Source: a virus
Taxonomy: Duplodnaviria; Caudoviricetes
DNA length: 54,079 nt
Reading direction: 5' to 3' (one strand)
Virus record (IMG/VR): IMGVR_UViG_3300048999_000082
Location: 1-54,079 of that record
Made by a program: the position numbers and the translations under genes. A model generated the notes under the pieces. It did no database searches and was not told the origin of the DNA. It was given only the letters and a program-made list of their open reading frames with translations. This document shows positions 3,868 through 30,448 of the stretch, piece by piece (the first letter of the stretch is position 1; the number at the start of each line of letters is the position of its first letter).

Positions 3868-4028
3868 GGGTACGTGACGGCATTCGCGGCGGCATGGGTT
3901 TCGTCTTCGGTGGCAGCGGTTCCTTCACCCACGGCCGTGAGGCCGATGCCGTCGTCCGCCCATACGGTCCACGCCCAGGTTCCGTCATCCTGTTCGGACA
4001 CCACGCGGGTAATGTTAACGTCTGGCAT
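3864..4028 (-). CDS. small acidic hypothetical protein, 54 aa (not in ORF track)
   Basis: MPDVNITRVVSEQDDGTWAWTVWADDGIGLTAVGEGTAATEDETHAAANAVTYP; GGAGG RBS; stop overlaps the next ATG. Confidence 0.7.
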   Translation of the reverse strand: MPDVNITRVVSEQDDGTWAWTVWADDGIGLTAVGEGTAATEDETHAAANAVTYP

Positions 4029-4149
4029 GTCGTTTCCTCCAAATGTATCGACTCAATGCCATGCCGGCACCGACAATAACCATAGTCACGACGAATGCTG
4101 CGAACAACCACCACGCCAACATAAAGAATAGGTCAACGCGCATAGCCAT
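4015..4149 (-). CDS. small membrane protein, 44 aa (not in ORF track)
   Basis: MAMRVDLFFMLAWWLFAAFVVTMVIVGAGMALSRYIWRKRHARR: one TM helix and a basic tail. Confidence 0.6.
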   Translation of the reverse strand: MAMRVDLFFMLAWWLFAAFVVTMVIVGAGMALSRYIWRKRHARR

Positions 4150-4156
4150 AATCAGT

Positions 4157-4339
4157 TCACCCATGAATATCTTTACTCAACAATCTCCGGTCCAGCCATA
4201 CGTCAATGGAATCTTTCACGATGAATTCTGTGCCGGTCGCACCGCATGATCGTGCCTTGGTCAACACGACAATCAGATCCCGCAATTTACGGTCAATCTC
4301 GGCAACCGTCCATCGACCAAGCACGTCATCGGTTTTCAT
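4157..4339 (-). CDS. hypothetical protein
   Basis: TAATG coupling. Confidence 0.6.
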   Translation of the reverse strand: MKTDDVLGRWTVAEIDRKLRDLIVVLTKARSCGATGTEFIVKDSIDVWLDRRLLSKDIHG

Positions 4340-4824
4340 TACGTCACCTTATCGCAATCACAACCAGAGATCAGACAGAACACCGTGGACGAATCGTCAT
4401 CGAGCACATGCATGTCAACGTGATGGGTACACACGGCGCAAGCACGTTCAACAATGATCTTGTCATCGCCTCCACCGAGATTCTTCAGGTGGCCAACAAT
4501 GACCCCACCACCACCCAACAGAATATTGATCGGATCTATTAACGGATCCGGTGCCGGTTTTTTACTTTGGTCATTGACGACAACGGAGGTGGTTCCGGTG
4601 CGTTGACTTTCCACGCCCTGTCGTATGAGATTTCGCGCACCCGTGTTGGGTAACGCTGGGGCGTGGGATCGTTTGAGCGGCGCATCCACGAGGTGATAGC
4701 CACCACCCAGGTTTTCCAAGTATTCACACGCAGCCTCTCTGTCCAACCACACCGAATCGAATTTGCCGGTCATGGTCAACACCACATATCCCACCGAGTA
4801 CGCGTACGGTCGGCCTCCGGGCAT
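4339..4824 (-). CDS. hypothetical protein with C-terminal Cys/His metal-binding motif
   Basis: Start MPGGRP after AAAGGA RBS; CAVCTHHVDMH...CLISGCDC. Confidence 0.7.
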   Translation of the reverse strand: MPGGRPYAYSVGYVVLTMTGKFDSVWLDREAACEYLENLGGGYHLVDAPLKRSHAPALPNTGARNLIRQGVESQRTGTTSVVVNDQSKKPAPDPLIDPINILLGGGGVIVGHLKNLGGGDDKIIVERACAVCTHHVDMHVLDDDSSTVFCLISGCDCDKVT

Positions 4825-13013: not shown

Positions 13014-13315
13014 CACACAAAGACGAAGCATTTGACCGGGCCATGAAACAACTCGAACGTGTGCAGACCGAAAAGTTCCAATGGCTTTCATCATACGAAT
13101 ATCTACGTGACGCGATCATCGGATCCTTCAATCCGCCCGATGAAGACGCGGCCGAAGATTCAGTCATGAAAGACGCCATCACCCGAGCTTTTAATTTCAT
13201 TGAGACCACACCATGCGCGTGTACATGGCATGAAGAACCCAATGAAGATGTGTGCGACACCTGCAAACGATGCGAGGTATTGGGCCGCGAATTTGACGTG
13301 ATGGTCGAGCGTTGA
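13010..13315 (+). CDS. hypothetical protein, Cys-rich C-terminus
   Basis: CAC...CDTCKRC; coupled to genes on both sides. Confidence 0.7.
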   Translation: MTHKDEAFDRAMKQLERVQTEKFQWLSSYEYLRDAIIGSFNPPDEDAAEDSVMKDAITRAFNFIETTPCACTWHEEPNEDVCDTCKRCEVLGREFDVMVER

Positions 13316-14820
13316 AATACAAGTTCCGCACCAAGCCGTATGCACACCAGGTCCGTGCATTGCGATTTCTCATCCGCCACAAAGGCGGCGCGTTGTTGAT
13401 GGAACCGCGCACCGGTAAGACAAAAACCACAGTGGACTACGCATCTATGTTAGCAACGGCCGGCCGCATTAACCGCATGGTTGTCGTGTGTCCGGCGCGC
13501 GTGATGGGGGTGTGGATTGAAGAGTTCCACCGGCATTCCCCGTTGCTGGTCAACATCATTCTGTGGGATGCCGACGCACGTCAGGCTGCAATACCAAAGC
13601 CATCGGGTCATTACGACCTACACGTGTTGTTGGTGAATTACGAGGCGTTCCAGGTACCGGGTAAAAAACTTCCGTCCGGGCGCCGGTCATCATCCACCGG
13701 CCGGTTTAAATCCCGTAAGAGATTGCGTGCATGGCTCGACGGTAAACCGGCGTTATGTGTGCTGGATGAGAGCCACAAGATCAAATCCCCGTCGTCAAAG
13801 GCCGGCACCATGCTGGTGTCCATGCGCGACGATTTTACGTACCGCATGATCTTGACCGGCACACCCCAGACAAAAGCCAAACGCGTCATTGACATCTACA
13901 TGCAATGGCAATTTCTAAACCCCGCACGGTTCGCCCACGTACCCACGTCGCAAGAATTCAAGAACCATTATGGGAACTGGGTTACTGTCGGGGGTAACGG
14001 ATTCTCATACCCAAAATGGACCGGGCCGGCGAACCTCAAAGAATTGAAACAACTCATCCATCGGGATTCATTCGCGGTCAAACGTGACGACTGTTTTGAC
14101 CTGCCCCCAAAAGATGTACGCATTGTCCACACCCCGCTCACCGATTCACGCCAAGCGTACAAGGACATGGCGAAAGAAATGGTCCACCAAATCTCCACGG
14201 GTGAGATCACCGAAGCCACCATCGCGTTAACCCAGGCGTTGCGATTGTCGCAGATCACAGGTGGTAACGCGGGCATGCAAGACATTGTGTTGGACCCGCG
14301 TACCGGCGCAGCCAAACGTAAATCGTGGTCGGTTCGTATCGGCCATGAAAAGTTGAATGCGTTGCGGGAGATGTTGGAAGACGAGATTTTTGACCGGGAT
14401 GACAAAGTCGTTATCGCTGCCCGGTTCAACCCGGATCTTGACGCCATCCGTGACCTGTGTAAAAAAATCGGTATCACGGTGTATGAGTTGCGTGGCGGTA
14501 TGAAACGCGGTGACACCGATCAAGCCATTCGGAACTTCCGGGATGACGATGGTCCGGCCGCGTTCATCATGCAACCGGGCGCCGGATCATTGGGCATTGA
14601 CCTCTCAACGGCCGCACACATGGTGTGGTACTCGATGACGGCATCATGGGTGGATTACACCCAAGCGTGCGACAGAATCGCTCTCAGCCGCCGTTCCACC
14701 ACGTTTACGTATCTCATCGCTCCTGGCACGGTGGACGAACTCCTATACGAAACATTGCAGACCGATGGTGAAGTTTCCCGCGCAATTCTCGACAAGCCCG
14801 AGCGATTGTTGTTGGATTGA
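13312..14820 (+). CDS. SNF2-family DNA helicase
   Basis: KPYAHQ, EPRTGKT, LDESH, LTGTP, GIDL and QACDRI motifs. Confidence 0.93.
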   Translation: MKYKFRTKPYAHQVRALRFLIRHKGGALLMEPRTGKTKTTVDYASMLATAGRINRMVVVCPARVMGVWIEEFHRHSPLLVNIILWDADARQAAIPKPSGHYDLHVLLVNYEAFQVPGKKLPSGRRSSSTGRFKSRKRLRAWLDGKPALCVLDESHKIKSPSSKAGTMLVSMRDDFTYRMILTGTPQTKAKRVIDIYMQWQFLNPARFAHVPTSQEFKNHYGNWVTVGGNGFSYPKWTGPANLKELKQLIHRDSFAVKRDDCFDLPPKDVRIVHTPLTDSRQAYKDMAKEMVHQISTGEITEATIALTQALRLSQITGGNAGMQDIVLDPRTGAAKRKSWSVRIGHEKLNALREMLEDEIFDRDDKVVIAARFNPDLDAIRDLCKKIGITVYELRGGMKRGDTDQAIRNFRDDDGPAAFIMQPGAGSLGIDLSTAAHMVWYSMTASWVDYTQACDRIALSRRSTTFTYLIAPGTVDELLYETLQTDGEVSRAILDKPERLLLD

Positions 14821-14846
14821 CGAACCTAACACGCCATCCATAAAAT
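14817..14846 (+). promoter_or_regulatory. SigA-type promoter for the nucleotide-modification/polymerase operon
   Basis: TTGACG-18 nt-TAAAAT, then GGAGG RBS and ATG at 14879. Confidence 0.75.
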
Positions 14847-14878
14847 GGACACGTACACGACACCCATGGAGGTTTTGC

Positions 14879-15454
14879 ATGCCCCGAAACTTGTTGATTG
14901 AAGGGCCGGACGGGTCCGGTAAATCAACGCTCATTCGGCAGTTCACCGAACGATTCCCCGTACCCGTGCATCCGCGCGCGTGCACATCAACGGGTGGACC
15001 GGTCGACAATCTGTGTGACTGGGCGATGAACGATATTGCCGAACAGGACAAAAATTCCGGTTGGCTTGGCGCTGACGGCCACACCCCAACCACCCAGTTG
15101 TACGACCGGCATCCCGGAATCTCGGAACTGGTGTACGGGCCGATCTGTCGCGACAAGGTCGCCGTGGGTTTTGACAACTGGGGAAACCGCGACGAAATTC
15201 TGCACGGTATCCAGCGCAACATGTTCATCATCTGGTGTTTGCCCCCGGCAAAGGTCGTCGCGAACAACGTCATGAAACAGGTTGATAACCACATGTCAGG
15301 TGTGGCGTCGAACATCAGCGCGATCTATTCCGCGTACCGTCTATGGACGATGATCTACCACGGCGGATCATTCGTGTACGACTACACCAACGACTCACAC
15401 GCGAAAATCATCGAAGCCATTATGGCTGCCGAACTGGGGATCCTCCATGACTGA
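14879..15454 (+). CDS. dNMP (thymidylate-kinase-like) kinase
   Basis: LLIEGPDGSGKST P-loop; LYDRH...SELVYG motif. Confidence 0.88.
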   Translation: MPRNLLIEGPDGSGKSTLIRQFTERFPVPVHPRACTSTGGPVDNLCDWAMNDIAEQDKNSGWLGADGHTPTTQLYDRHPGISELVYGPICRDKVAVGFDNWGNRDEILHGIQRNMFIIWCLPPAKVVANNVMKQVDNHMSGVASNISAIYSAYRLWTMIYHGGSFVYDYTNDSHAKIIEAIMAAELGILHD

Positions 15455-15968
15455 CACCCGTCCCACGACTGACCGGCACGATATCTTGACGGATATCATG
15501 CGTCGGCAGCGGGAACTTCAAATGATCATCAACGGTCATGACCCCCAGTATTCGAGAGATAAAATCCAAGACATTCGCATCAATATCTTGGCCGCCATCG
15601 CCGAACTCATCGAGATGTTGGATGAAATTCCGTGGAAACCGTGGTCTGCCTCTACTGAATTTCGTCGTGACGCATTCGTGTCTGAAGGCATTGACGTAAT
15701 GCACTTCCTCGTCAACATGTTCTTGATCGCTGGTGCCACCCCCGATGAGATTCACACCAAGTACGTTGCCAAGAACGAACTGAACCGCAAACGTCAAGCC
15801 GATGGTTATGACGGGTCCAACAAATGCCCCGGGTGCCACCGCGCGTACGACGATGAAGCCGTTAAATGCGAACTGCCATCGGTTGATGACGGTGTGGATA
15901 TGCATTGGTGCGAGGCGAAAAACGATTACGTGAACCCTGACGGTTCCGTGCACGTGGATGAGCGGTGA
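15447..15968 (+). CDS. all-alpha dNTP pyrophosphatase (dimeric dUTPase / T4 gp56 dCTPase type) with Cys-rich tail
   Basis: ELIEMLDE..WKPW...EGIDVMHF...KNELNRKRQ; CPGC...C...C tail. Confidence 0.88.
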   Translation: MTDTRPTTDRHDILTDIMRRQRELQMIINGHDPQYSRDKIQDIRINILAAIAELIEMLDEIPWKPWSASTEFRRDAFVSEGIDVMHFLVNMFLIAGATPDEIHTKYVAKNELNRKRQADGYDGSNKCPGCHRAYDDEAVKCELPSVDDGVDMHWCEAKNDYVNPDGSVHVDER

Positions 15969-16933
15969 TCCACGGCTTCAATTACCCATCGGCAACCGCG
16001 TTGCATGACGGCATGTGTCGCCGGTTGATGATGGGTACGAGATTTAATCGTGATTTTGACTGGGTGCACGGGACGGAGGTCGGCCTGCACAACGTGACGA
16101 CATTCGCGCCGTCATTCGAATGGGAATTCAACCTACGGAATCTGTGGATTCCCCGGTCTCGGTGGACCATGATGGTTAGGCAATACCTGAACCCCGATGA
16201 ACTAAACCCGTGGCTCGACCTCATCGAATCCCGGATGTCATCACGCAACGGTCGTGGTCTGGCCGTGCTGCGTACGAACCATGTTCAAGGCCGGGGTAAC
16301 GGCAAGCATGTACGCCGGCGCTTCGGGTCATGCATGTTGAACTTCACTTTTCGCCGCAACCCGTATCCCCAGTTGTCGATGCATTCTCGCACGACGTATT
16401 TCGGTTACCTCGCCGCGCTTGATATCACGGTGGCGTACGCATTGGCGAAGTTGGTTGCCGAACGTATCGGTATCGAACCGGCGGGGATGTCATTTCTATG
16501 GTCCATCGAACTCGCCCAATTTCACGGGTTCCGTTCGCTGGCGTGGCCGTTAATGGATGATGAGATGCGTGAGGGGTTGATCGACAACGTCACTCGGGAA
16601 ACCCGTATGGCCATCCCAGCCACACCATCACGGCCCGGCGCACGTCCGGGATACCGCAAAGCGTTGGATGGATTCGCGCGCATCCACGCGGCCGATGAGG
16701 CCGGTAAGTTGTATGGCGACGAAGCATTTTCGTCATTCAACCGTGTACGGCGCCGGTATCATACCGAGGTGTATGGCGTTGACTACGCCGAACAGTTCGC
16801 CGGGGGATTGCGTAACGTTGGGACGTTCGCACCGTTGCCTTCGGTGGACGCGACCACGTTGGAGATTTGGCCCCACCTGAACGGAGTTGAAAATGACCGC
16901 ACCGAACCCGATGAGTTTGAAGACGACGAATGA
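15965..16933 (+). CDS. divergent thymidylate-synthase-fold protein
   Basis: GSCMLNFTF...LSMHSRTTYFGYLAALD...SFLWSIELAQFH aligns by eye with ThyA PCHAFFQF...LYQRSCDVFLGLPFN...FVWTGGDTHLY. Confidence 0.6.
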   Translation: MIHGFNYPSATALHDGMCRRLMMGTRFNRDFDWVHGTEVGLHNVTTFAPSFEWEFNLRNLWIPRSRWTMMVRQYLNPDELNPWLDLIESRMSSRNGRGLAVLRTNHVQGRGNGKHVRRRFGSCMLNFTFRRNPYPQLSMHSRTTYFGYLAALDITVAYALAKLVAERIGIEPAGMSFLWSIELAQFHGFRSLAWPLMDDEMREGLIDNVTRETRMAIPATPSRPGARPGYRKALDGFARIHAADEAGKLYGDEAFSSFNRVRRRYHTEVYGVDYAEQFAGGLRNVGTFAPLPSVDATTLEIWPHLNGVENDRTEPDEFEDDE

Positions 16934-17777
16934 GGCGTTGTTTTCCCCCCAAGATTTCGAACAGGTTTACCGTGCATTCGGAAAAATGTTGATCGACACC
17001 GACCCGATCAAAAACGACCGGTGGCAGTCCATCGACGTGTCCGAATCCAAAGCACACGACATGCACGAATTGTTGAACGTGAATCTTCACCTGGTGATTC
17101 CGTACAACCGGGCGAACCTTCACACACTCGTATCTCCGTCCACACCGTGGGCCGATGACCATTTCAGCGAACGGATCGGGGGTAAACCCACAAACCCAGG
17201 TGACACGTACGCATCGTGGCCGTGGTACAAAGGCGGGGTGGAAGACCATAAATCCACCGGTCAGTTCAGTCACACGTACATGGAGAGGTATTGGCCAAAA
17301 GAAGCCAATGGTGGGGGGATCGGGCCAGAAGATACCAACGCACCTTTTCCACACCAAGGGATCCGTTATGAATACGGAGATCTCAATGACGTGGTGAATC
17401 TACTCGTGTCGGACCGCAACACCCGCCAGGCGTTCTTACCGGTGTGGTTTCCCGAAGATACCGGCGCGGTTCACGGCGAACGGGTGCCGTGCTCGATCGG
17501 CTATCACTTCATCATCCGTAACAACCGGCTGCATTGTTTCTACACCATCCGGTCATGCGATTTTGTGCGGTACCTTCGCGATGACATTTACCTCACCGGA
17601 CGGTTGATGCAATGGGTGTGCACACAATACAACCGGCTCACCGATGACCCGTTCGACATTACCTCGAACCCGATGGTATCCGTTATTCACCCTGGCGAAC
17701 TGGTAATGAACATTTCCTCGCTGCATTGTTTTCGAGGCGATGACCACAAACTACGTGAGATCATCGGTGCGTCATGA
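16887..17777 (+). CDS. thymidylate-synthase-family enzyme, dCMP-type (hydroxymethylase-like)
   Basis: TRQA, VPC nucleophile, RSCDFVRYLRDD (Asp at the E. coli ThyA N177 position, as in T4 gp42), GELVMNISSLH. Confidence 0.88.
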   Translation: MKMTAPNPMSLKTTNEALFSPQDFEQVYRAFGKMLIDTDPIKNDRWQSIDVSESKAHDMHELLNVNLHLVIPYNRANLHTLVSPSTPWADDHFSERIGGKPTNPGDTYASWPWYKGGVEDHKSTGQFSHTYMERYWPKEANGGGIGPEDTNAPFPHQGIRYEYGDLNDVVNLLVSDRNTRQAFLPVWFPEDTGAVHGERVPCSIGYHFIIRNNRLHCFYTIRSCDFVRYLRDDIYLTGRLMQWVCTQYNRLTDDPFDITSNPMVSVIHPGELVMNISSLHCFRGDDHKLREIIGAS

Positions 17778-18259
17778 CCCGGCCAACGCAGGTTGAATCA
17801 TTGATGGAGACCGCATGGGTCTTTTCGAAACGATCCACGTGCGCACGTAAACATGTCGGTGCGGTCATCGCCCGCGAAGGGCGAATCATCGCGTCCGGAT
17901 ACAACGGCGCACCGGCCGGCCTCCCGCATTGTTTCCATTCACTCCCGGATGAGATCCTCATGCCGGGTGGTCTACCATTCATCACCCCCGAGCCATGCAC
18001 AGTCGCCACACATGCCGAAGAAAACGCGATCTTCTTTGCTGCTCGTCACGGTGTGGCTCTCGACGGCGCCACGATATTTTGCACATGCATGCCATGCCCG
18101 CGTTGCGCCCGCGCGATCATCAACGCTGGCATTACATGCGTATGGTGGGATGAGCCATTTCGGGATGTCACCGGGATGACGTTGTTAACCCAAGTCGGCA
18201 TCAAAACAATTAGTTATCAGGCGGTTGTGAATGACGCGCACGCTGTCAATTCTCCGTGA
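17774..18259 (+). CDS. dCMP deaminase
   Basis: RSTC..KHVGAVI, GYNG, HAEENAI and PCPRC zinc-deaminase motifs. Confidence 0.95.
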   Translation: MTRPTQVESLMETAWVFSKRSTCARKHVGAVIAREGRIIASGYNGAPAGLPHCFHSLPDEILMPGGLPFITPEPCTVATHAEENAIFFAARHGVALDGATIFCTCMPCPRCARAIINAGITCVWWDEPFRDVTGMTLLTQVGIKTISYQAVVNDAHAVNSP

Positions 18260-20759
18260 CGAAAACTGCGATCTGTGCCGGTTACACGCCGGGGCCGATG
18301 GCAACGATCGTTGTGTGGTTGGACGAGGACCGGTGCCGGCGAAAATCGTCGTCGTCACCAAGGTTCCGTTGAGCAAGCGTGGACAAACTGAATTGAACGA
18401 TTATCTGACCACGGCTGGCATTGACCCGTCAGTCGTGGTTTTCACCGCAGCGTTAAAATGCCGTGCATGGGGGATAGAACCCAACAAGGCCGACATGAAA
18501 GCGTGCCGGTCATACCTTGATCAAGAATTGGAAATGATCAAGCCTAAATACATCATCGCGTTGGGCAACGAGGCGTTGTATTCGACCACCGGTAAATCAG
18601 GCATCATGAAATATCGGGGGCAAAAGTTCACGCACGCATGCCGCGCCATCGTCATACCCACGATCTCTCCCGCATCTGCCGCACGTAACCCCGGACAACG
18701 CGGGGGGTTGGTTGCTGATCTGAAATTCGTCGCTGACACCATCACGGGTCGACGCGACACCATGCAATATCTCGTACCCACACCTGACACGTACGTACCG
18801 GTGATGGACCGACCGACGTTGAAACGTATGCTGGCCGTTATCCAGTCATCCGATACGGTGTCGTTCGACATAGAAACCACCATGGGCCGTGAGACCGACG
18901 CTGACGCACACATCGTGTCGATCGCGATAACCACCCGCACGGGGGCCGATGACGCGTCAGCGATCGCCTGGGCCGTTCCTTTGTACCATCCGGAATCCCC
19001 GTTCCGGTCGGCATGGGAACGTGTGCTCGACATCATCGGGCAAGCCATCACCCGGATCACGGGTACGCCCCGAATTATAGCCCAGAACGGTAAATTCGAT
19101 CTGCGCTGGTGTCGGCATTTCTCATCGGTGTGGGGCGGTATCAAACTAACCTTTGATACTATCTTGGCCGCACATCTGTTGGACGAGAACCGTCCCAAAG
19201 GATTAAAGCCATTGGCGCAACAACTTCTCGGCGCCGAACCGTGGGGAATCGACACCCGTGACCTGTTGACCACACCCATCGCTGACGTACTGTGGTACAA
19301 CGCGCTCGATACGTGGCACACGTTAAGGTTGTCGGATGTGTTGAAACGTGACCTCATTAAACGGCCGCGTATCGCACGCATCTTTAAGTTCATCATGATG
19401 CCCGCATCGGAAGCGTTGACATTTTCCGAAGCAAAAGGCATTTGGGTCGACCGTGACCAGATGGAAAAAAACTGCGCCATCGCGGCAGCGAATCAAGCCG
19501 AGATCGAAACGTTGTTGTCGGTGTGGATTCCGCCATCCGAGGAATGGCCGGAGAAGATCAAGGCGGTTAATTACAACCCCTCAAATTTTCTGCGGTGGTG
19601 GTTGTTCGACCATCTGAATTTTCCGGTTATCGCACGGGGTAAGCAAAAAGATGATGGTTCACCCGGTGACCCGTCCGTGTCGGAATCAGTCATGTTCACG
19701 TTGGCTGAATTGCCCCATGCCGACGTGCCCCAGTTGTTGATCAAGCGGTCGTGGTGGAACAAATGCCAGACGTCATTCTTCAACCCGTACGCCGAACAAC
19801 TCGACGATGACGGATACATCCACACCAACTTCAAGTTGAACGGGACGACCACGGGCCGGTTGTCATCGGGTAAAGCCGACGAAGACAAATTGACCGCACG
19901 CAAACAAGAACGGGGAATGAACGCACAGCAAGTACCGCGTGACATTTTTGTGCGGGGTATCTTCGGTGCGCCACCGGGACGTAAATTCGTACAGGCGGAT
20001 TATTCACAGGTTGAATTGCGTACGGTGGCATTCGTCGCCCAAGAACGAAACATGCTGCACCATTACAACACCGGCCAGGATTTGCACATGGCTATGGCTA
20101 TGCGCATGACCGGAAAACCCCGTGAGAAAATCACCAAGGAAGAACGTAAGGCGGCCAAGCCGGTGAACTTCGGATTCCTGTATGGCATGAACTGGGCGAA
20201 ATTCATTGAGACCGCGTGGACGCAATATCAAGTGCATTTCACGGAGGAACAAGCCAAGGCAGCCAAACGGGCATTCTTTGAAATGTGGTCGGATCTCCCC
20301 GCGTGGCACAACAAACAACGCCGACTGGTCCGTAAATACGCACGGGTCGAATCGCCCATCGGCCGTATCCGTCACCTCCCCGATATCCGTTCGGCCGATG
20401 AAGGAGTACGGGCGGAAGCCGAACGGCAAGCCATCAACTCACCCATTCAATCGTTCGCGTCTGACATGGCGTTGCTGGCATTGACCATTTTGCATGACCT
20501 GTTCATCACCCACGATATCGACGGTCATATCGTGGGTACGGTGCATGACGCGATCAACTTTGATATCGCTGACCACGATCTCGCCCGTGCGCTACCGTTG
20601 ATCAAGGACACCATGGAGAATCTCCCACTCCGCCGTTTGTTTGGCGTCAATCTCACGGTCCCGATTGTCGCGGATGTATCCGTGGGTACACGATGGGGCG
20701 GCGCACGCGAATTGACACCCGCTGAAGTTTACGATTACCGAGGAGAAATGGCCGCATGA
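18231..20759 (+). CDS. polA: family A DNA polymerase with N-terminal family-4 UDG-like domain and 3'-5' exonuclease
   Basis: CDLC...KC...C Fe-S ligands and IIALG; ExoI DIET, ExoII NGKFD, ExoIII YNALD; TGRLSS, DYSQVELR, KPVNFGFLYG, TVHD. Confidence 0.95.
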   Translation: MTRTLSILRDENCDLCRLHAGADGNDRCVVGRGPVPAKIVVVTKVPLSKRGQTELNDYLTTAGIDPSVVVFTAALKCRAWGIEPNKADMKACRSYLDQELEMIKPKYIIALGNEALYSTTGKSGIMKYRGQKFTHACRAIVIPTISPASAARNPGQRGGLVADLKFVADTITGRRDTMQYLVPTPDTYVPVMDRPTLKRMLAVIQSSDTVSFDIETTMGRETDADAHIVSIAITTRTGADDASAIAWAVPLYHPESPFRSAWERVLDIIGQAITRITGTPRIIAQNGKFDLRWCRHFSSVWGGIKLTFDTILAAHLLDENRPKGLKPLAQQLLGAEPWGIDTRDLLTTPIADVLWYNALDTWHTLRLSDVLKRDLIKRPRIARIFKFIMMPASEALTFSEAKGIWVDRDQMEKNCAIAAANQAEIETLLSVWIPPSEEWPEKIKAVNYNPSNFLRWWLFDHLNFPVIARGKQKDDGSPGDPSVSESVMFTLAELPHADVPQLLIKRSWWNKCQTSFFNPYAEQLDDDGYIHTNFKLNGTTTGRLSSGKADEDKLTARKQERGMNAQQVPRDIFVRGIFGAPPGRKFVQADYSQVELRTVAFVAQERNMLHHYNTGQDLHMAMAMRMTGKPREKITKEERKAAKPVNFGFLYGMNWAKFIETAWTQYQVHFTEEQAKAAKRAFFEMWSDLPAWHNKQRRLVRKYARVESPIGRIRHLPDIRSADEGVRAEAERQAINSPIQSFASDMALLALTILHDLFITHDIDGHIVGTVHDAINFDIADHDLARALPLIKDTMENLPLRRLFGVNLTVPIVADVSVGTRWGGARELTPAEVYDYRGEMAA

Positions 20760-23432: not shown

Positions 23433-24025
23433 TGGCAACACGTGCCCGTACCACAACCGCCGCACGCAAACCGGCCGCCAAGGCAGCGCCGGCAGCCACA
23501 CCGAAGAACGGTGCGACGAAAAAGCCGTTGGATTTTACCAACGTTAAGGAAGCCGGTAATTTCTCACCGAAACACAAGACCGAGGGCGATTACCTCGGCA
23601 AGATTGTCAAGGTCGAGGATTCCGAATCCAAGGCCGGAAATGCGATGTGGGTATTCACCATCGTGCTCGCGTCCGACGCTCGGGCGACGTACCCGTACTA
23701 TTGCACGCTAGATGAAAAGTCGTTGTGGAAGGTTCGCGCACTGATCGAGGCCACCGGAAAGCCGGTCCCGAAAAAGCGCATCATGGTCGACCCCAATGGC
23801 CTCGTCGGAAAAGAAATCGGCGTGGCCCTCGAGGACGACGAATACGAGGACAAGGTCCGTTCCAAGGTCCAAGCCACATTCCCCACCGATGAACTCTCCG
23901 GTGACGAGCCCGATGACGCGGGCGATGATGACGAAGATCCGGTCGATGACGAAGATCCCATCGATGATGACGAAGAAGTCGACGGGGACGACGATCTCGA
24001 AGAAATGGAACTGGACGATCTGTAA
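23432..24025 (+). CDS. DUF669-like single-stranded DNA-binding protein
   Basis: EGDY..KI..VE..ESKAGNAM, LWK, LVGK...Y motifs; long acidic tail. Confidence 0.8.
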   Translation: MATRARTTTAARKPAAKAAPAATPKNGATKKPLDFTNVKEAGNFSPKHKTEGDYLGKIVKVEDSESKAGNAMWVFTIVLASDARATYPYYCTLDEKSLWKVRALIEATGKPVPKKRIMVDPNGLVGKEIGVALEDDEYEDKVRSKVQATFPTDELSGDEPDDAGDDDEDPVDDEDPIDDDEEVDGDDDLEEMELDDL

Positions 24026-24054
24026 TTGACATCGTCCCACGTGTCACATATATT
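24026..24054 (+). promoter_or_regulatory. near-consensus SigA promoter
   Basis: TTGACA-17 nt-TATATT. Confidence 0.8.
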
Positions 24055-24060
24055 GGGTGA

Positions 24061-24142
24061 ACACGTGGGTGCGTGTGCCGGTGAAAAGACCCGGTCGGTC
24101 GGGGTCCTCTGTTTCCTTTCCCCCGATCGGCTGGGTCTTTTC
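24061..24142 (+). ncRNA. candidate sRNA of about 82 nt: 5' hairpin plus 22-bp terminator hairpin
   Basis: Starts at the predicted TSS; ACACGT/GCGTGT hairpin; stem 24083-24104 pairs with 24121-24142 using three G-U pairs specific to the + RNA; loop UCCUCUGUUUCCUUUC. Confidence 0.55.
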
Positions 24143-24161
24143 CGTACCCATTGGAGAATTA

Positions 24162-24413
24162 ATGCCCGCCACACCCCATGAAATGCCCGTGCCGCGAGAC
24201 ATCGGTCCGGTGTTCGAGATTGTGTTCAAGACTGAATGCGCCGATTGCATGTTGACCCTGTGGCCCGGTCAACCGGCGCGATACGTCGATGGCGACATCT
24301 GCTGTATCGGGTGCGTGAATGACACGGCAACAATCGCCCGACCCGCCCGTACGTGCCCCACGTGTTTTCAGACATACTCCACAACCGGCGTATGCGGATG
24401 TGATCCATCGTGA
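24162..24413 (+). CDS. Cys-rich zinc-binding protein
   Basis: CADC, CCIGC, CPTC, CGC; GGAG RBS. Confidence 0.7.
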   Translation: MPATPHEMPVPRDIGPVFEIVFKTECADCMLTLWPGQPARYVDGDICCIGCVNDTATIARPARTCPTCFQTYSTTGVCGCDPS

Positions 24414-24712
24414 CCAGCCAACCGGAATCACGGCTGTCACGGTCCATCATGGACGCTCTCACGGCACGGGGGGCATTCGTATGGAAAAACCACGGCAGCG
24501 CGTTCATGATGGCTGGGTTGCCGGATATCGTCGGGGTGTACCGGGGTCGGTTCCTGGCCATTGAAACCAAGATGCCGGGTGGTCAACCATCCATCGTACA
24601 GGTACGCGTGATGGGTAAGATTCGATATGCGGGGGGTGCGGTCATGGTCGCCCAATCCATCAAAGAAGCCATGACGATTATTGACGAGATCGACGCGTTA
24701 ATTTCGGGCTAA
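24410..24712 (+). CDS. VRR-NUC nuclease (Holliday-junction resolvase type)
   Basis: ES.L, GLPDI, FLAIETK, S..Q motifs. Confidence 0.9.
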   Translation: MTSQPESRLSRSIMDALTARGAFVWKNHGSAFMMAGLPDIVGVYRGRFLAIETKMPGGQPSIVQVRVMGKIRYAGGAVMVAQSIKEAMTIIDEIDALISG

Positions 24713-24768
24713 ACAAAACCCCCGTCGCAACCAATACGGATTCCACTCCGCGCGACGGGGGTTTCGTT
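24712..24768. terminator. bidirectional terminator between convergent operons
   Basis: AAACCCCCGTCGC...GCGACGGGGGTTT with inner CGGA/TCCG hairpin. Confidence 0.75.
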
Positions 24769-24851
24769 CGAACATTTAACCCGAGGATCGTTTTCCCTTG
24801 CCCACCCCGGAACATTCGATTTTTTCACTCGCACTGCGATGATATCAAACG

Positions 24852-25079
24852 TCATGGCCTCCGGAAATATTTGACCGGAGCGGTGACCGTCTTGCCCCCG
24901 CCACCGGCACCCGATGACAGTTTTGGGATTCCCGGGATGCGGGTAATGGTTGAAGACACCCCCGTGATGACCGTGCGGTTTTTGTTGGTCCGGATAGCCG
25001 TGATGAGGTAAAGCACATCGCCCGGACCGATGACGTTTTCTCCGACAGCGAACGGTTTGGGCGCGACCGGAACAGCCAT
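24852..25079 (-). CDS. hypothetical protein
   Basis: GGAGG RBS; last gene of the leftward accessory operon. Confidence 0.65.
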   Translation of the reverse strand: MAVPVAPKPFAVGENVIGPGDVLYLITAIRTNKNRTVITGVSSTITRIPGIPKLSSGAGGGGKTVTAPVKYFRRP

Positions 25080-25080
25080 G

Positions 25081-25470
25081 TTAACCTCCAGCGTTGTACG
25101 TACGGACCATTCCCGGGATCAGGAATGCGTCCACGATGAGCCACACCAACGTAACCGGATATCCCACGAGAGACAACGTGCACAGCAGCATCGCGATTCC
25201 TGTGCCTGTCTTTCCCAGGTAGAACCGGTGAATTCCGAGAGCCGACAGGAAAAACCACAGTACATACGCGATGGCGATCTCTTTCGGCGGCTGCGTCCGC
25301 AGAACAAGGTGAGTCCCAGCGGACACCGGCCCGCTCATGTGATACACGGGCTCTTCGTGGAAATGACGGTTCGGAAACTCGTCGGTGTGGACACGAGGAT
25401 CCGGGAAACGGGTTGAGTAGGTCCACCCACCAAATCCGTCACGGTTGGGGACGTTGGGTACGGTCATCAC
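25081..25470 (-). CDS. TM2 (NINE)-domain membrane protein
   Basis: AYVLWFFLSALGIHRFYLGKTGTG. Confidence 0.9.
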   Translation of the reverse strand: MMTVPNVPNRDGFGGWTYSTRFPDPRVHTDEFPNRHFHEEPVYHMSGPVSAGTHLVLRTQPPKEIAIAYVLWFFLSALGIHRFYLGKTGTGIAMLLCTLSLVGYPVTLVWLIVDAFLIPGMVRTYNAGG

Positions 25471-26048
25471 GGTTCCTTTGTTTCGAAGGTGTTGGTACGG
25501 TGACCCGCGACCAACTCAATGTGTGCTTTGACATCCCTGATGGTAATCCACACCGATGATGCTTGTGGCTTATGCCATGCGCGCAATTCCATGGTCTTCG
25601 GCCCGGTGACCTTTCCCCGCAATGCAACGAACGACTCACCACGCCGGGTACTGCCGGCCTTGACGATACGTATGAGGTATTCATTGCCGGCTTCGTTGCC
25701 GTCAGGATTGGGTGTGAATTCCACAGACATCCCGCCAATGTCCCAGGCGGTACGAACGTACGGAACCATCCGCGCCGGAACGTCGGTCAGGTCGGCATCG
25801 GACGCCAACCGGCGCATTTTACCGGCTGTCGTGGCCGTAGCCCGACGTTTACGCCCCACCGGTTCCGTTACCACGGTGTGCGTGTCCGTCGTCTTACGGG
25901 CCGGCTGACGGGCCTTTGTACCACCCGAGGTCACGGCCATGGCCCGTTCGGCATTCGGCTGCGTTCCCCCGCCCGCCTTCCGGCACGCCGCACGACCCGC
26001 AGGTGTGGCCGGGTGATTGTGTCCTGCATGGCTCATGACCATGATCAA
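25467..26048 (-). CDS. hypothetical protein with N-terminal His/Cys motif
   Basis: SHAGHNHPATPAGRAACRK. Confidence 0.75.
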   Translation of the reverse strand: MIMVMSHAGHNHPATPAGRAACRKAGGGTQPNAERAMAVTSGGTKARQPARKTTDTHTVVTEPVGRKRRATATTAGKMRRLASDADLTDVPARMVPYVRTAWDIGGMSVEFTPNPDGNEAGNEYLIRIVKAGSTRRGESFVALRGKVTGPKTMELRAWHKPQASSVWITIRDVKAHIELVAGHRTNTFETKEP

Positions 26049-26326
26049 TTTCCTTCCGTGTAATCGGGTGATGCGGGAAAGTTCGCGAGCCGTTCCCGTG
26101 CACGTGCGGCGGCCGGCATAGCCGCGAACCGTGCCGTGTTCAATACCTTCACCAATGCCTCCGTCTGGTCCGGGGTCAACGCCATCGGCGCGATGACCAC
26201 ACCCCCGTCAGGCAATCCGCCATCAAATGACGGACCCGTCACCGTGAGGGTGATGGACCCGGCCAGCAATACGGCGACCTCAATGGACCCAGCCACCCCC
26301 GTAATCGTTTCGCGGTACATGATCAT
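26045..26326 (-). CDS. hypothetical protein
   Basis: GAAAGGA RBS; ATGA coupling (MIMYRETI...). Confidence 0.65.
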   Translation of the reverse strand: MIMYRETITGVAGSIEVAVLLAGSITLTVTGPSFDGGLPDGGVVIAPMALTPDQTEALVKVLNTARFAAMPAAARARERLANFPASPDYTEGN

Positions 26327-26721
26327 TTTCCTTTCGGTGCGCGGGGGCGGGATTTTTTGACCGGCAGGTCCATCGGGTACGCGTCCAGGTTGCGGTAATA
26401 CACGCCAGTCACGGTCACCGATGCGCGACACCGTTCGCGATCGCGCGGCGTGGCCAGGTGCAGGTGATCCGCGTGGCGGGTGTACGTTTTCGCAACCGTG
26501 TCGGTGTGGCCAACCACGATGTCTTCCGCCGGGTTGGACCCGATGCACACCAGGCACGCGTCCCGGTCCGGATGAACGGCCGGCAACGCATCGTGACCCT
26601 GGTCCGAATGGGCATTTTCCCAACCCGCGTAATCGAAACACGGGTCGCACAGGTCGGAATTCAAACCGGCCGCACGAGACGGTCGCCGGGCGCCACAGGC
26701 GACGCACATTTTGCGAGCCAT
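26323..26721 (-). CDS. multi-zinc-motif protein
   Basis: CVAC, CDPC, ENAHSD.GH, CLVC, HADHLHLATPRDRERCR. Confidence 0.75.
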   Translation of the reverse strand: MARKMCVACGARRPSRAAGLNSDLCDPCFDYAGWENAHSDQGHDALPAVHPDRDACLVCIGSNPAEDIVVGHTDTVAKTYTRHADHLHLATPRDRERCRASVTVTGVYYRNLDAYPMDLPVKKSRPRAPKGK

Positions 26722-26723
26722 GA

Positions 26724-27032
26724 TCAACGCACCCCGCGAACACGCCGCACAACGGTGACGGTGGACCGGTTGCAGCACACGGTGACAGCGTCCGAGGTTG
26801 TCAGCGCGGGAACGTACAGGGGCGGGGCCACCAACCCGCATGACGGGCATTCGATGATCGACAGGGCCGACCCGGTCGCCGCGCGCATCGCAACCCGTCC
26901 GGCGACGTAATGCGGGTTGTCAGCCAGGGTGCGGGTCGGATTTTCCGTGGACCACGCGGCGGTCCGGATCGATGCCGCCAAGGCGGCCGCAATGTCCGGC
27001 GTGATCGGTTCGAGGGTGCGCGCAACGGTCAT
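26724..27032 (-). CDS. hypothetical zinc-ribbon protein
   Basis: GGAG RBS; CPSC...CC. Confidence 0.6.
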   Translation of the reverse strand: MTVARTLEPITPDIAAALAASIRTAAWSTENPTRTLADNPHYVAGRVAMRAATGSALSIIECPSCGLVAPPLYVPALTTSDAVTVCCNRSTVTVVRRVRGVR

Positions 27033-27034
27033 GA

Positions 27035-27226
27035 TCAGTTCTCCACGGTCATCGTGTCGGTGGGGCGGACCAACATGTCCGCGCCGTTGTCTTGAAATTT
27101 GATCCGCAGCCGGCCGACCATAGCCGGTTCGGTGTCGTACACGTACCGCCCGGTCACCAGGTCGCCGGATTTGAGGGAGTACGCCGGAACGGTGAACCCG
27201 GTCGGTGCGGTGCGTGTCGTGGTCAT
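27035..27226 (-). CDS. small hypothetical protein, probably leaderless
   Basis: PAYSLKSGDLV SH3-like pattern; ATG 6 nt after the -10 box. Confidence 0.7.
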   Translation of the reverse strand: MTTTRTAPTGFTVPAYSLKSGDLVTGRYVYDTEPAMVGRLRIKFQDNGADMLVRPTDTMTVEN

Positions 27227-27232
27227 GGGACC

Positions 27233-27262
27233 ATCGTACGGTCAAACCTCGATCAATGTCAA
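27233..27262 (-). promoter_or_regulatory. SigA promoter, leaderless transcript
   Basis: TTGACA-18 nt-TACGAT-GGTCCC-ATG. Confidence 0.75.
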
Positions 27263-27311
27263 GGTTTTCACCTCATCCGTTTGGACAATTTATCGAGGTT
27301 TCCGGTCACAC

Positions 27312-27340
27312 AAAAACCCCCGCCCGGTTGGACGAGGGTT
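27312..27340 (-). terminator. intrinsic terminator
   Basis: Minus strand AACCCTCGTCC-AACC-GGGCGGGGGTTTTT. Confidence 0.7.
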
Positions 27341-27355
27341 AAGGTGTATGTCCGA

Positions 27356-27703
27356 TTACGGTAGGTACGAGGTAACAACGTCGATGTCCATGATCAATTC
27401 GTCCCGGTCATCATCGGTGGCGCCATCCAGGAACATCCGGCCGCACCGTACGTACATGGCCGCATCCAATTTGGCAACCGCCAATTTGTACCCGGTCGCG
27501 ATGCCGTCCGCAATGTCGGTGGCCAACCCACCGGGGGTGACGGTACGCGGCAGGAACCGGGCCACGTGATGGGCGTACGCGAGGATGGCCATTACGTACG
27601 GGTGGTCATCACAGGTCAACGTGTCGTTACGGTCGGGGTCCGATGCCATGCGGGAGGCGTTGGCCGTGATGATGTCCGATGCGGTGTTTCCAGTGTGGGT
27701 CAT
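27356..27703 (-). CDS. hypothetical protein, probably leaderless
   Basis: TAGGAT-TAACCC-ATG. Confidence 0.7.
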   Translation of the reverse strand: MTHTGNTASDIITANASRMASDPDRNDTLTCDDHPYVMAILAYAHHVARFLPRTVTPGGLATDIADGIATGYKLAVAKLDAAMYVRCGRMFLDGATDDDRDELIMDIDVVTSYLP

Positions 27704-27757
27704 GGGTTAATCCTACCCTCGATTGGACGGTTTTTCGAGGTTTTGGACCTCAACCTT

Positions 27758-27964
27758 TCAGACAATTTTGATGATGTACCGTCGCGGACGTTCCCAATCT
27801 GAAGCCACCAACTCACCCGTCATGACCAACCGGTCCAACCGGGCCTGTATGGCCTGACGTGTCACCACACCATGTAGGTGTCGGGTGACCATCTCGGCCG
27901 TAGCAGGTTCGAAACGACGAACGGCGGCTATCAATTGATCATCCGATACCACCTGTTCGCTCAT
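27758..27964 (-). CDS. small winged-helix protein
   Basis: PATAEMVTRHL..VTRQAIQARLDRLV..GEL; GGAGG RBS. Confidence 0.65.
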   Translation of the reverse strand: MSEQVVSDDQLIAAVRRFEPATAEMVTRHLHGVVTRQAIQARLDRLVMTGELVASDWERPRRYIIKIV

Positions 27965-28446
27965 ACCGCAACCTCCCGGTTGTACGCACCTCGACCAGGG
28001 CGCGCATCGTTGCGCCAATCATCCACCCCGTCAACCTGGGAAACGTGGCGTCCACGTTCCCGCAACCGTGCCTCCAACCGTGCCACGCGCTCCGCAGCGG
28101 CCTGTCGTAACGTTGGGGTCATCGGGGGAACGACGACCGGCCCCAACCCGGCAGCGGCGCGCTGTGCGTCTTCCTCGGCCCATACATCGGCATCAATTTC
28201 CGCCCGGGTACGCGGTGTGGCATCGACCGTCTTCACGGATGTTTTTCCCGATGGTTTAATCGACACCTTTTTTCCATCGATCCACGCGGTGAACAGTTTT
28301 TTGACGGTCGGGATATCCGATGGCTGAAAATCGTACCGGCCGCCCGATCCGACATTGCGATATGACGGGTCCGCCCGCAGGAAACGGCGAAGGGTTTTCG
28401 CGTCGGTTCCAATTTCCCGAGCCACGTCCGATGAGGTCATGGTCAT
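27961..28446 (-). CDS. HTH DNA-binding protein
   Basis: MTSSDVAREIGTDAKTLRRFLR...VGSGGRYDF. Confidence 0.75.
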   Translation of the reverse strand: MTMTSSDVAREIGTDAKTLRRFLRADPSYRNVGSGGRYDFQPSDIPTVKKLFTAWIDGKKVSIKPSGKTSVKTVDATPRTRAEIDADVWAEEDAQRAAAGLGPVVVPPMTPTLRQAAAERVARLEARLRERGRHVSQVDGVDDWRNDARPGRGAYNREVAV

Positions 28447-28714
28447 CACACACCCGCCGTTTCCGGACGGTGGCGGCCGACATACGCAACGGGGCGGTTT
28501 TCGTTGGGCCACACCCAACGGGAGATGCGGGTCCAATTTCGGGTGATCATGTTTTGGTGCCTTTCGGGGTGCGTGCGTTGACGGGGCATCACCCGACCCG
28601 TACGCCCATTAGCAGCACGGGCCGGATGATTCCTGATCACGGCAAGTAATACGCGAGAACGGCGGCAACGGTGAGCCAGCCAATGACCCACACCAATACG
28701 CGAAGCATGGCGGG

Positions 28715-29008
28715 TCAGTCGTTGTAAAAGTCGTATGCGCGAACGTCTTCGGTGACGTATTCCGGGTAGTCCGGCATGCAGGTGTAATGCATGTGGACGA
28801 TGTCCAGCGCGTTGTTCCAGCCCCATTTATCGACGATCACGCCGATAGCCCGAAGGTACGGGAGGGTGTGGCGGTCCGCCTCCGTGGAATCACGCAACAC
28901 GCACAATGCGTGGCGGGGGAGGCCGGAACCATCGGCCGCGAATACCGGGACCTGATTGTCCGGGATAACGTGCGAACATGATGGGCAGATAACGATAGTG
29001 TACGTCAT
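28715..29008 (-). CDS. zinc-finger hypothetical protein
   Basis: CPSC...HALC; GGAG RBS. Confidence 0.65.
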   Translation of the reverse strand: MTYTIVICPSCSHVIPDNQVPVFAADGSGLPRHALCVLRDSTEADRHTLPYLRAIGVIVDKWGWNNALDIVHMHYTCMPDYPEYVTEDVRAYDFYND

Positions 29009-29046
29009 GATCATCTCCGTGGGTGCGGGATGGCGCGGATCACAAA

Positions 29047-29104
29047 ACCCTAACATACCCTTAATGGGTTGGTCAACCCCCAAACGTAATCCGGGGGTTG
29101 ACCA
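29047..29104 (-). promoter_or_regulatory. promoter TTGACC-18-TAGGGT overlapped by a 12-bp inverted repeat
   Basis: TGGTCAACCCCC-11 nt-GGGGGTTGACCA at 29070-29104. Confidence 0.55.
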
Positions 29105-29115
29105 CGGCAAACGTA

Positions 29116-29448: not shown

Positions 29449-29494
29449 GGCACGGACAGCAATCGTATCCGCGACGTGTGACGTGTGGGTGGGT

Positions 29495-29974: not shown

Positions 29975-30022
29975 GATCCACTCCTTCGGGTGCGGGGCGG
30001 GTGCGGGCGGAACAACACCAAC

Positions 30023-30361: not shown

Positions 30362-30400
30362 TCAAACTCCGTTCGTCACCCCGCATATTAACGGACACGG

Positions 30401-30430
30401 AAAAGGCGCCCGGTACGTACACCAGGCGCC
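30401..30430 (-). terminator. intrinsic terminator
   Basis: Minus strand GGCGCCTGGT-GTACGT-ACCGGGCGCC-TTTT. Confidence 0.65.
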
Positions 30431-30448
30431 ATCCGTTTTTGTGTGTTG

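Follow-up and report, generated by a model that had tools for sequence, protein, structure and literature searches.

The phage genome in IMG/VR record IMGVR_UViG_3300048999_000082 (54,079 nucleotides, or about 54 kb, analyzed whole and called the window here) raises the question of what is encoded by a gene that has no recognizable sequence family and lies between a pyrophosphatase gene and a divergent thymidylate synthase (TS) gene. This open reading frame (ORF), called ORF-A, encodes 322 amino acids on the plus strand, from a GTG start at 15965 to a stop at 16933. Its downstream neighbor, TS-B (16893 to 17777, plus strand), is a divergent cytosine-type TS homologue with a truncated C terminus. 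An earlier note, made from the DNA letters alone, had described ORF-A as a cryptic second TS-fold gene and a possible heterodimer partner of TS-B, or as the enzyme of a second C5 chemistry step. With only slightly more confidence than doubt, we read ORF-A as an active, extremely diverged TS-superfamily enzyme working in the pathway of TS-B.

Fold and active-site register of ORF-A

ORF-A was modeled with AlphaFold2 as a monomer from an alignment of 34 homologues (A1), and the model had a mean predicted local distance difference test (pLDDT) score of 90.4 and a predicted template modeling score of 0.89. Foldseek comparison to the PDB returned 21 matches at an E value of ≤0.001, and all 49 of the PDB matches listed were thymidylate synthases or their relatives, one of them a design on the TS fold. 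MilA had the best E value (3e-6), and AfhB, the T4 deoxycytidine monophosphate (dCMP) hydroxymethylase, and many ThyA entries were also present. In the BFVD search, the top matches were uncharacterized phage proteins (E values of 4.5e-13 and 1.3e-10), gp48 of phage PMBT14 was third, and TS and dCMP hydroxymethylase homologues ranked after the top phage proteins. In the ESM Atlas, 21 of 30 feature hits belonged to clusters with PF00303. By its predicted structure, ORF-A has the TS fold and belongs to the TS/dCMP hydroxymethylase superfamily; ThyA and T4 gp42, which the earlier note had named for comparison, were both among the Foldseek matches.

At the level of sequence, the same protein is cryptic, as the note had said. 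There was no Pfam match at E values up to 1 and no NCBIfam match, and none of 92 ORF-A family members matched PF00303 at E values up to 0.01. Searching PDB sequences with two ORF-A profiles (A1 and the broader, 92-member A5) gave chance-level matches only, and megablast of the cassette against phage records found nothing. The protein does fall in phrog_13667 (E value of 2.6e-83, residues 5 to 300 on profile positions 4 to 289 of 297), a family to which no function has been assigned.

The register between ORF-A and TS enzymes comes from hhalign, in which profile A5 was compared to an alignment headed by Escherichia coli ThyA. ORF-A residues paired with ThyA residues as follows: C123 with C146, R142 with R166, T143 with S167, Y145 with D169, D153 with N177, W179 with W201, and Q185-F186-H187 with H207-L208-Y209. 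This reproduces the register drawn by eye in the earlier note, at an E value (0.017) that is weak alone, and only the broader profile A5 gave it. All of the listed elements are present in the protein: a GSC motif (residues 121 to 123) with Cys123 (codon 16331 to 16333, plus strand, as are all those below) at the position of the ThyA nucleophile, an SRT motif (residues 141 to 143) with Arg142 (16388 to 16390) at the position of the phosphate-binding Arg166, Tyr145 (16397 to 16399) at the position of the folate contact Asp169, Asp153 (16421 to 16423) 11 residues after Arg142 at the base-specificity position (Asn177 in ThyA, Asp179 in T4 gp42), and Gln185-Phe186-His187 (16517 to 16525) in place of HLY. 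Because the residues picked by eye stay invariant across the ORF-A family at 17 to 25% identity, the register is more than chance.

Spacing and predicted secondary structure are consistent with these pairs. Cys123 and the Arg142-Thr143 pair are 19 residues apart, matching the TS pattern of a Cys followed about 20 residues later by an Arg-Ser/Thr phosphate pair. The model has a strand at residues 125 to 130, a turn, a second strand at 136 to 145, and a helix at 149 to 168, a segment that we take to be the ThyA hairpin-plus-helix bearing Cys146, Arg166, and Asn177. A further residue, the family-invariant Tyr74 (codon 16184 to 16186), may be the equivalent of ThyA Tyr94, a proposal from spacing only: Tyr74 stands 49 residues before Cys123, and Tyr94 stands 52 before Cys146. 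Arg97, in the strand GRGIAVLRT, is a tentative candidate for the counterpart of ThyA R126.

The C-terminal part of ORF-A consists of a helical domain and a disordered tail. The domain (residues 190 to 300; 16532 to 16864) is all helices, with pLDDT values of 91 to 98 in each ten-residue block, and carries the motifs GYRKALDG, YGDE, and RVRRRxHTE, which are conserved in homologues. It is specific to the actinophage-type subfamily and does not align with the shorter analogues found in proteobacterial phages. The tail (residues 301 to 322; 16865 to 16930; pLDDT of 36 to 76) overlaps the start of TS-B; 9 of its 22 residues are Asp or Glu, and it is acidic in most of the 34 homologues. The C-terminal extension, described earlier as about 130 residues, is smaller relative to ThyA: 135 residues follow H187, and in ThyA 55 follow Y209, so that the net extension is about 80 residues.

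The overlap with TS-B noted earlier is also there. It spans 41 nucleotides from the ATG at 16893, which has a GGAG six bases upstream and is most likely the TS-B start, or 47 nucleotides from an alternative TTG at 16887. At the other end of the gene, the GTG start codon of ORF-A shares nucleotides with the stop codon of the preceding gene (GTGA), and the N terminus, beginning MIH, is conserved among homologues.

One internal feature varies within the family. Nine of the 34 homologues carry an insertion between the positions of residues 103 and 104 of the window protein (A1 columns 124 to 151), just before the strand leading to RRRWGSC; in eight of the nine it is acidic and has 26 to 28 residues. 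The loop that follows the insertion point (residues 116 to 121) is the only internal low-confidence part of the window ORF-A model.

Conservation of ORF-A and its linkage to TS-B

A word-indexed search found 519 ORF-A relatives, with no Pfam domain among the 120 listed, and a profile search of 1.84 billion representative proteins recovered 209 ORF-A clusters at an E value of ≤0.001. Across the 92 representatives, which reach down to 17% identity to the window protein, Y74, G121, C123, R142, and W179 are invariant, and each of R66, S141, and D153 is kept in at least 90%. In an independent set of 68 ORF-A-superfamily members taken from IMG/VR, where they were recovered beside TS-B genes, only four alignment columns reach 90% conservation: Tyr, Cys, and Arg, each found in all 68, and, 11 columns beyond the Arg, Asp, found in 67 and replaced by Glu in the remaining member. 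Cys, Arg, and Asp map to the TS catalytic core by alignment, and Tyr maps by spacing only. Tyr74 is thus invariant in the 34-, 92-, and 68-sequence sets, and Cys123 is invariant in 92 of 92 and 68 of 68.

These columns bear on whether ORF-A is an enzyme at all. As a pseudoenzyme or nucleotide sensor, it would be a regulator that binds dCMP or deoxycytidine triphosphate (dCTP), or a scaffold of a nucleotide-synthesis complex. The replacement of D169, H207, and Y209, the absence of a detectable Pfam signature, and an acidic disordered tail and Arg-rich C-terminal domain that look like interaction elements would all fit such a role, and the tail could tether ORF-A to a basic partner. We consider this quite improbable: Cys and Tyr are invariant in the 92 and 68 sequences at about 20% identity, binding alone needs neither, and the proteobacterial-phage subfamily has neither the C-terminal domain nor the tail yet keeps Tyr, Cys, Arg, and Asp. 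Retention of the nucleophile Cys at such divergence argues for catalysis, since binding does not require it.

In cultured phages, tblastn located ORF-A in 85 records, all of them actinophages (Gordonia, 68; Mycobacterium, 9; Streptomyces, 4; Microbacterium, 2; Mycobacteroides, 1; Curtobacterium, 1). The protein is annotated as a hypothetical protein in all 40 rows listed, for example in Muddy, where it is gp47, and our literature search found no paper describing the ORF-A family or second TS paralogues of this sort. ORF-A founds its own clade in the TS superfamily, one without prior characterization.

TS-B is a genuine but divergent TS homologue. Its Pfam match (PF00303, E value of 1e-4) is below the cutoff, with some relatives scoring above it, and it belongs to phrog_160. 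Its AlphaFold2 model (pLDDT of 77.8) gave 396 PDB matches at an E value of ≤0.001, and those listed were TS-family structures. Two alignments (A4 and A6) compared TS-B with the enzymes of E. coli (ThyA), T4 (gp42), and Xp12; W80, R126, C146, R166, S167, D169, and H207 were kept in both and Y94 in A4 only, and Arg occupies the L143 position and Phe the Y209 position. The protein ends about 15 to 20 residues after the H207 position and has no counterpart of the last approximately 45 residues of ThyA. At the N177 position TS-B carries Asp, a residue it shares with gp42 and the Xp12 enzyme, and by the Asn177/Asp rule this indicates a cytosine nucleotide substrate (PMC13326640 and PMC8670742, in the parts of their text that were available). 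TS-B should therefore act on dCMP and not on deoxyuridine monophosphate (dUMP), and for this reason the label "thymidylate synthase," carried in the great majority of GenBank rows listed, is probably wrong in function.

Linkage between the two genes was examined in both directions. From the ORF-A side, 17 loci were compared (3 actinophage records and 14 IMG/VR contigs), and TS-B was immediately downstream in all 17. The order kinase, pyrophosphatase, ORF-A, TS-B, deaminase, polymerase was kept in 16 of these; locus L007 begins at the pyrophosphatase, and in locus L006 the pyrophosphatase was not detected. From the TS-B side, IMG/VR contains at least 553 TS-B loci, and the plus-strand ORFs of the best 80 were searched with profiles. 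A member of either ORF-A subfamily was directly upstream of TS-B in 59 loci, further upstream in 5, and detected after one iteration in 2, for a total of 66 of 80. Out of the 14 loci without a partner, 3 had less than 650 nucleotides of upstream sequence. The question posed by the earlier note, whether homologues always sit next to TS-B, is thus answered largely in the affirmative, for all 17 of the ORF-A loci compared and for most of the TS-B loci.

Relatives of TS-B (E value of ≤1e-20) occur in 103 phage records, whose genus tallies include the same actinophage counts as ORF-A. The other 18 records comprise phages of Serratia, Pseudomonas, Brevundimonas, Yersinia, and Stutzerimonas, two records of unclassified Caudoviricetes, and one further record. 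In PMBT14, Serbin, and P744, the slot between the pyrophosphatase and TS holds a shorter protein of 262 to 277 amino acids, which has no Pfam family and belongs to phrog_34294 (function not assigned). By hhalign, this analogue matches the ORF-A profile from the Cys to the Arg (E value of 5e-4); it keeps Cys, Arg, and Asp in a joint alignment with ORF-A and has Glu at the Tyr145 (ThyA D169) position. The version in PMBT14 is the gp48 that ranked third among the BFVD matches to the ORF-A model. It was found in 17 records, with genus tallies matching those of the TS-B records. A profile combining both subfamilies reached five TS-B proteins among 1,078 ORFs (E values of 7e-6 to 9e-4), which is a direct though weak link in sequence between the ORF-A and TS-B families.

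Two observations concern individual loci. Two GenBank records (L020 4205 to 5038, from Yersinia phage vB_YenM_P744, and MW202455) label the short analogue "pyrimidine hmase synthase," so some annotation pipeline apparently already picks up a TS-like signal in it; no literature behind this label was found, and the P744 and Serbin genome papers do not mention the gene. At locus L040, a second ORF, lying directly upstream of TS-B (3872 to 4570), also matches the TS-B profile (E value of 8e-23) and may be a split or duplicated TS-B, with an ORF-A-superfamily member just before it.

The active sites of TS enzymes are built jointly by the two subunits of an obligate dimer, with Arg126' and Arg127' donated across the interface. 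This general property favors a model in which ORF-A and TS-B dimerize with each other (A:B) by way of the beta-sheet interface typical of TS and complete each other's active site, with ORF-A either catalytic or supplying structural elements, such as the C-terminal lid that TS-B is without. Such a dimer is compatible with ORF-A being an active enzyme. The pairing is near-obligate in both directions and confined to the clade of divergent TS-B proteins; the Xp12 5-methyl-dCMP synthase, a canonical enzyme, has no such partner, and TS-B is without the last approximately 45 residues of ThyA while ORF-A bears a long C-terminal domain. Overlapping or directly abutting ORF-A and TS-B genes are also seen in the window and in each of the six annotated records compared, but tight overlaps are the rule for every gene throughout the cassette, and this arrangement hence carries little weight. 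No fused ORF-A/TS-B protein was found among longer proteins (565 to 2,000 amino acids), which is weak evidence; 11 of the 77 evaluable TS-B loci have no detectable partner; and each protein keeps its own full set of catalytic residues, which homodimers would explain equally well. A single complex prediction for ORF-A plus TS-B, run without controls, scored 0.14 against a mark of 0.32 and is counted neither for nor against binding; the sequences themselves fit an A:B dimer as well as A:A and B:B dimers. We regard the heterodimer as unlikely.

Comparison with described enzymes and the predicted reaction

Phage T4 is among the closest described systems. T4 gp42, the dCMP hydroxymethylase (PDB 1b5d, 6a9a, and 6l18), shares with ORF-A the fold (Foldseek E values of 1.7e-4 to 1e-3), the Cys nucleophile, the Arg, and, the same number of residues after the Arg, an Asp at the base-specificity position, and T4 has a comparable set of a gp56-like pyrophosphatase, a deoxynucleoside monophosphate (dNMP) kinase, and a dCMP deaminase. 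Unlike gp42, ORF-A does not belong to a sequence family with known function, has Tyr for the folate-binding Asp169 and QFH for HxY, carries an added helical C-terminal domain, and always comes with a second, cytosine-type TS homologue. The acidic residue (Asp or Glu) that hydroxymethylases have at the L143 position, three before the Cys, is also absent; ORF-A has Phe120 there, and most homologues have Trp (RRRWGSC).

MilA, the cytidine monophosphate hydroxymethylase of mildiomycin biosynthesis (PDB 5jnh and 5b6d), gave the best PDB E value (3e-6, for 5jnh) and is similar in length, at about 318 amino acids. It has Asp at the N177 position and is cytosine-nucleotide specific according to the available text of PMC13326640. 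The similarity is a match of the core only, with a template modeling score (TM-score) of 0.40 and a root mean square deviation of 15 to 16 Å over the full length. In contrast to ORF-A, MilA is a recognizable, folate-using enzyme of the PF00303 type.

The highest target-normalized TM-score among the PDB matches listed for the ORF-A model, 0.57, belonged to AfhB of phage HY126 (9iqu; also 9iqc), which is a flavin-dependent 5-hydroxy-dCMP synthase, as are RB69 gp48 and DLP3 gp80 (PMC13326640, available part). These enzymes are a precedent for a TS fold with the Cys and an Asp at position 177 that uses a nonfolate cofactor for other C5 chemistry. Their diagnostic residue, as given in the same portion of that paper, is Asn in place of D169; ORF-A has Tyr145 and the proteobacterial-phage analogues have Glu, and ORF-A was rejected as a member of this group on that ground. 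The flavin-dependent synthases are recognizable TS homologues by the ThyA alignments in the accessible text of that paper, not by a scan made here, and ORF-A is not. They also occur with glycosyltransferases, none of which was identified among the 39 window ORFs scanned.

The 5-methyl-dCMP synthase cassette of phage Xp12 resembles the window in having a nucleoside triphosphate (NTP) pyrophosphatase, a TS homologue with Asp177, and a dCMP-family deaminase near a PolA gene; its own parts are PRA-PH, TS, deaminase, and dihydrofolate reductase (DHFR). The Xp12 TS has a strong PF00303 match (E value of 3e-40), a full C terminus, and an adjacent DHFR gene, whereas the Pfam match of TS-B is weak, its C terminus is truncated, and Phe occupies its Y209 position; a scan of 39 window ORFs identified no DHFR. 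The gene upstream of the Xp12 TS, L103 46207 to 46980, annotated "hydrolase (HAD superfamily)," was considered as an ORF-A analogue and rejected, as it is a PRA-PH/MazG-type pyrophosphatase (Pfam E value of 6.6e-15) whose product had no hhalign match to profile A5. The next gene upstream of the PRA-PH gene in Xp12 encodes an HhH-GPD glycosylase domain.

Compared to E. coli ThyA, ORF-A retains the core beta-hairpin-helix topology and the residues C146, R166, and W201. It differs by N177 to Asp, D169 to Tyr, H147 to Met, Q165 to Ser, H207 to Gln, and Y209 to His, by a pre-Cys segment that is 23 residues shorter (122 versus 145), and by an unrelated C terminus. The Asp that marks cytosine-specific TS enzymes is present (D153 aligned to N177, Asp in 67 of 68 members), and the residues of folate-dependent enzymes (Asp169 with His207 and Tyr209) are replaced by Tyr145, Gln185, and His187. 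No described family in the TS superfamily accommodates ORF-A, which does not match PF00303 and lacks the Asp of the folate contact, the acidic residue of the hydroxymethylases, and the Asn of the hydroxylases.

The same residues speak to the possibility that ORF-A is an ordinary thymidine monophosphate synthase. ORF-A would then act on dUMP from the deaminase and pyrophosphatase, and synthesis of the modified cytosine would fall to TS-B, a division of labor like that of td and gp42 in T4. The cassette does amount to the T4 parts list with two TS-fold genes. We find this hardly credible, since 67 of 68 members have Asp where ThyA has Asn177, the folate contact D169 and the H207/Y209 pair are replaced, and no match to PF00303 occurs in any of 92 family members. 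In addition, published 5-methylcytosine phages obtain thymidine triphosphate (dTTP) by deamination of 5-methyl-dCTP and have no second TS for this purpose (10.1101/2024.12.05.627091).

We return to ORF-A as an active enzyme in the TS-B pathway. The catalysis, the pathway order, and the product are inferred, and the substrate class would be a cytosine nucleotide by the Asn/Asp rule. The ligand of ORF-A would be a (deoxy)nucleoside monophosphate of the cytosine type, whose phosphate would be contacted by Arg142 and whose base would be contacted at N3/N4 by Asp153. Cys123 would add to C6, and Tyr74 would serve as the acid/base at C5, as Tyr94 does in ThyA. C5 or a C5 substituent would then be activated for a reaction other than canonical methylene-tetrahydrofolate transfer. 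Replacement of D169, H207, and Y209, together with Met for H147 and Ser for Q165, implies a different C5 pocket and hence a noncanonical reaction. The substrate would be either dCMP or the product of TS-B, because TS-B is a cytosine-type, C-terminally truncated TS homologue, and the pair would operate in a pool-rewiring cassette with the parts of the cytosine-replacing systems of T4 and Xp12. The second C5 chemistry step with a nonfolate cosubstrate that the earlier note had offered as its alternative to a heterodimer fits the invariant Tyr/Cys/Arg/Asp set and the three replaced positions.

Several results weigh against this reading. The TM-scores in Foldseek are modest (0.3 to 0.57), and the link to TS at the level of sequence is weak: the hhalign match between A5 and the ThyA alignment, at its E value of 0.017, has a probability of 2.7%, and the alignment of 34 homologues (A1) had no significant match to the TS-B alignment (A2; E value of 0.74). 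Three positions conserved in working TS enzymes are replaced (D169 by Tyr, H207 by Gln, and Y209 by His), and ORF-A could therefore be inactive or only a nucleotide binder. Conserved Trp61 and Trp67, upstream of Tyr74, could be counterparts of ThyA W80 and W83; they leave a pterin or flavin site possible, and with it folate or flavin use. Xp12, the reference 5-methylcytosine phage, has no ORF-A analogue, and so neither plain cytosine methylation nor a minimal 5-methylcytosine pathway requires ORF-A. The partner is undetected in the 11 of 77 evaluable TS-B loci mentioned above, and the literature search found no report of modified DNA in phages carrying the pair (Muddy and Gordonia phages).

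A stronger version would make ORF-A and TS-B an obligate two-enzyme system, possibly an A:B heterodimer, producing a cytosine nucleotide other than 5-methyl-dCMP or 5-hydroxymethyl-dCMP. Here the lidless TS-B would deliver a one-carbon unit to C5 of dCMP, and ORF-A would attack C6 of that product again and regenerate the exocyclic methylene intermediate without folate, which would then be resolved with a different nucleophile or reductant. We hold this version to be doubtful. If it were true, Muddy-like actinophages and some siphophages of Serratia, Pseudomonas, and Yersinia would carry an undescribed DNA base.

The surrounding nucleotide cassette and phage genome

ORF-A lies in a plus-strand block of replication and nucleotide-metabolism genes. 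Upstream of it are an SNF2 helicase (13312 to 14820), a P-loop dNMP (thymidylate-type) kinase-like protein (14765 to 15454; phrog_761, E value of 2.2e-13, with weak Pfam P-loop matches), and an all-alpha NTP pyrophosphatase of the dUTPase_2 family (15447 to 15968; PF08761, E value of 1.8e-14). The pyrophosphatase matches the T4 gp56 dCTPase/dUTPase, which is itself a PF08761 member, with 31% identity over 100 residues (BLASTP E value of 2e-10), and this "dUTPase" may therefore clear dCTP instead of, or besides, deoxyuridine triphosphate. Downstream of TS-B are a zinc deaminase of the dCMP deaminase family (17774 to 18259; PF00383, E value of 4e-21; phrog_174), a family-4 uracil-DNA glycosylase (UDG) fused to a family-A DNA polymerase (18231 to 20759), and then a Cas4-like exonuclease and a Sak4-like annealing protein, with all genes whose coordinates are given here on the plus strand.

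This arrangement matches the published layout of cytosine-modification cassettes, with ORF-A as an extra gene. In metaviromes, 104 of 149 dCMP-deaminase genes on cytosine-modified contigs were within 3 kb of a TS homologue, versus 17 of 277 on unmodified contigs, and NTP pyrophosphatase and PolA were the other frequent deaminase neighbors (10.1101/2024.12.05.627091, from the portion of the text available, as for the rest of this comparison). The deaminase-linked TS homologues mostly have the Asp signature, and 5 of 7 tested made 5-methyl-dCMP. The linked deaminase that was characterized prefers 5-methyl-dCTP and thus supplies dTTP without a second TS. Those studies worked from Pfam domains, and a gene without one, such as ORF-A, would therefore have escaped the count.

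The ORF-A clade keeps the bare Tyr/Cys/Arg/Asp catalytic core and is invisible to Pfam-based surveys, among them the MetaGPA work from which the cytosine-modification cassette was defined. At least 102 cultured phages carry a member of the clade, one of them the therapeutic mycobacteriophage Muddy. New activities are still emerging in the TS fold, with flavin-dependent cytosine hydroxylation published in 2026, and ORF-A could add a new type of reaction to this classic fold. ORF-A and TS-B together point to an unstudied step in the synthesis of phage DNA building blocks. Knowing the reaction would show whether these phages carry modified DNA, with consequences for restriction evasion, sequencing artifacts, and phage engineering.

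In the polymerase gene, the UDG domain is N-terminal (residues 28 to 157; PF03167, E value of 1.5e-13; type-4 UDG by NCBIfam), and the fusion is 3' of the deaminase in all 17 related loci. UDG-PolA fusions were described in 2026 in thymine-modified phages of the SP-15 group, with polymerases of at least 1,000 amino acids (PMC13697223, available part). Assignment of the window phage to that group was rejected, since the available part of PMC13697223 covers larger polymerases of other phages and the fusion is an analogy only.

Elsewhere in the window are genes for a terminase (1093 to 2484), a tape measure protein (40223 to 43399), and a major head protein (49625 to 51097), and no tRNA genes were found. 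The region from 24000 to 32000 has a G+C content of 0.58 to 0.61, compared to about 0.54 elsewhere, and contains about a dozen minus-strand ORFs; six of the eight scanned in this region had no PHROG match. On the minus strand of the structural region, a 687-amino-acid protein (46302 to 48365) matches phrog_13624, labeled "hydrolase" (E value of 4.6e-55), and a phosphodiesterase PHROG.

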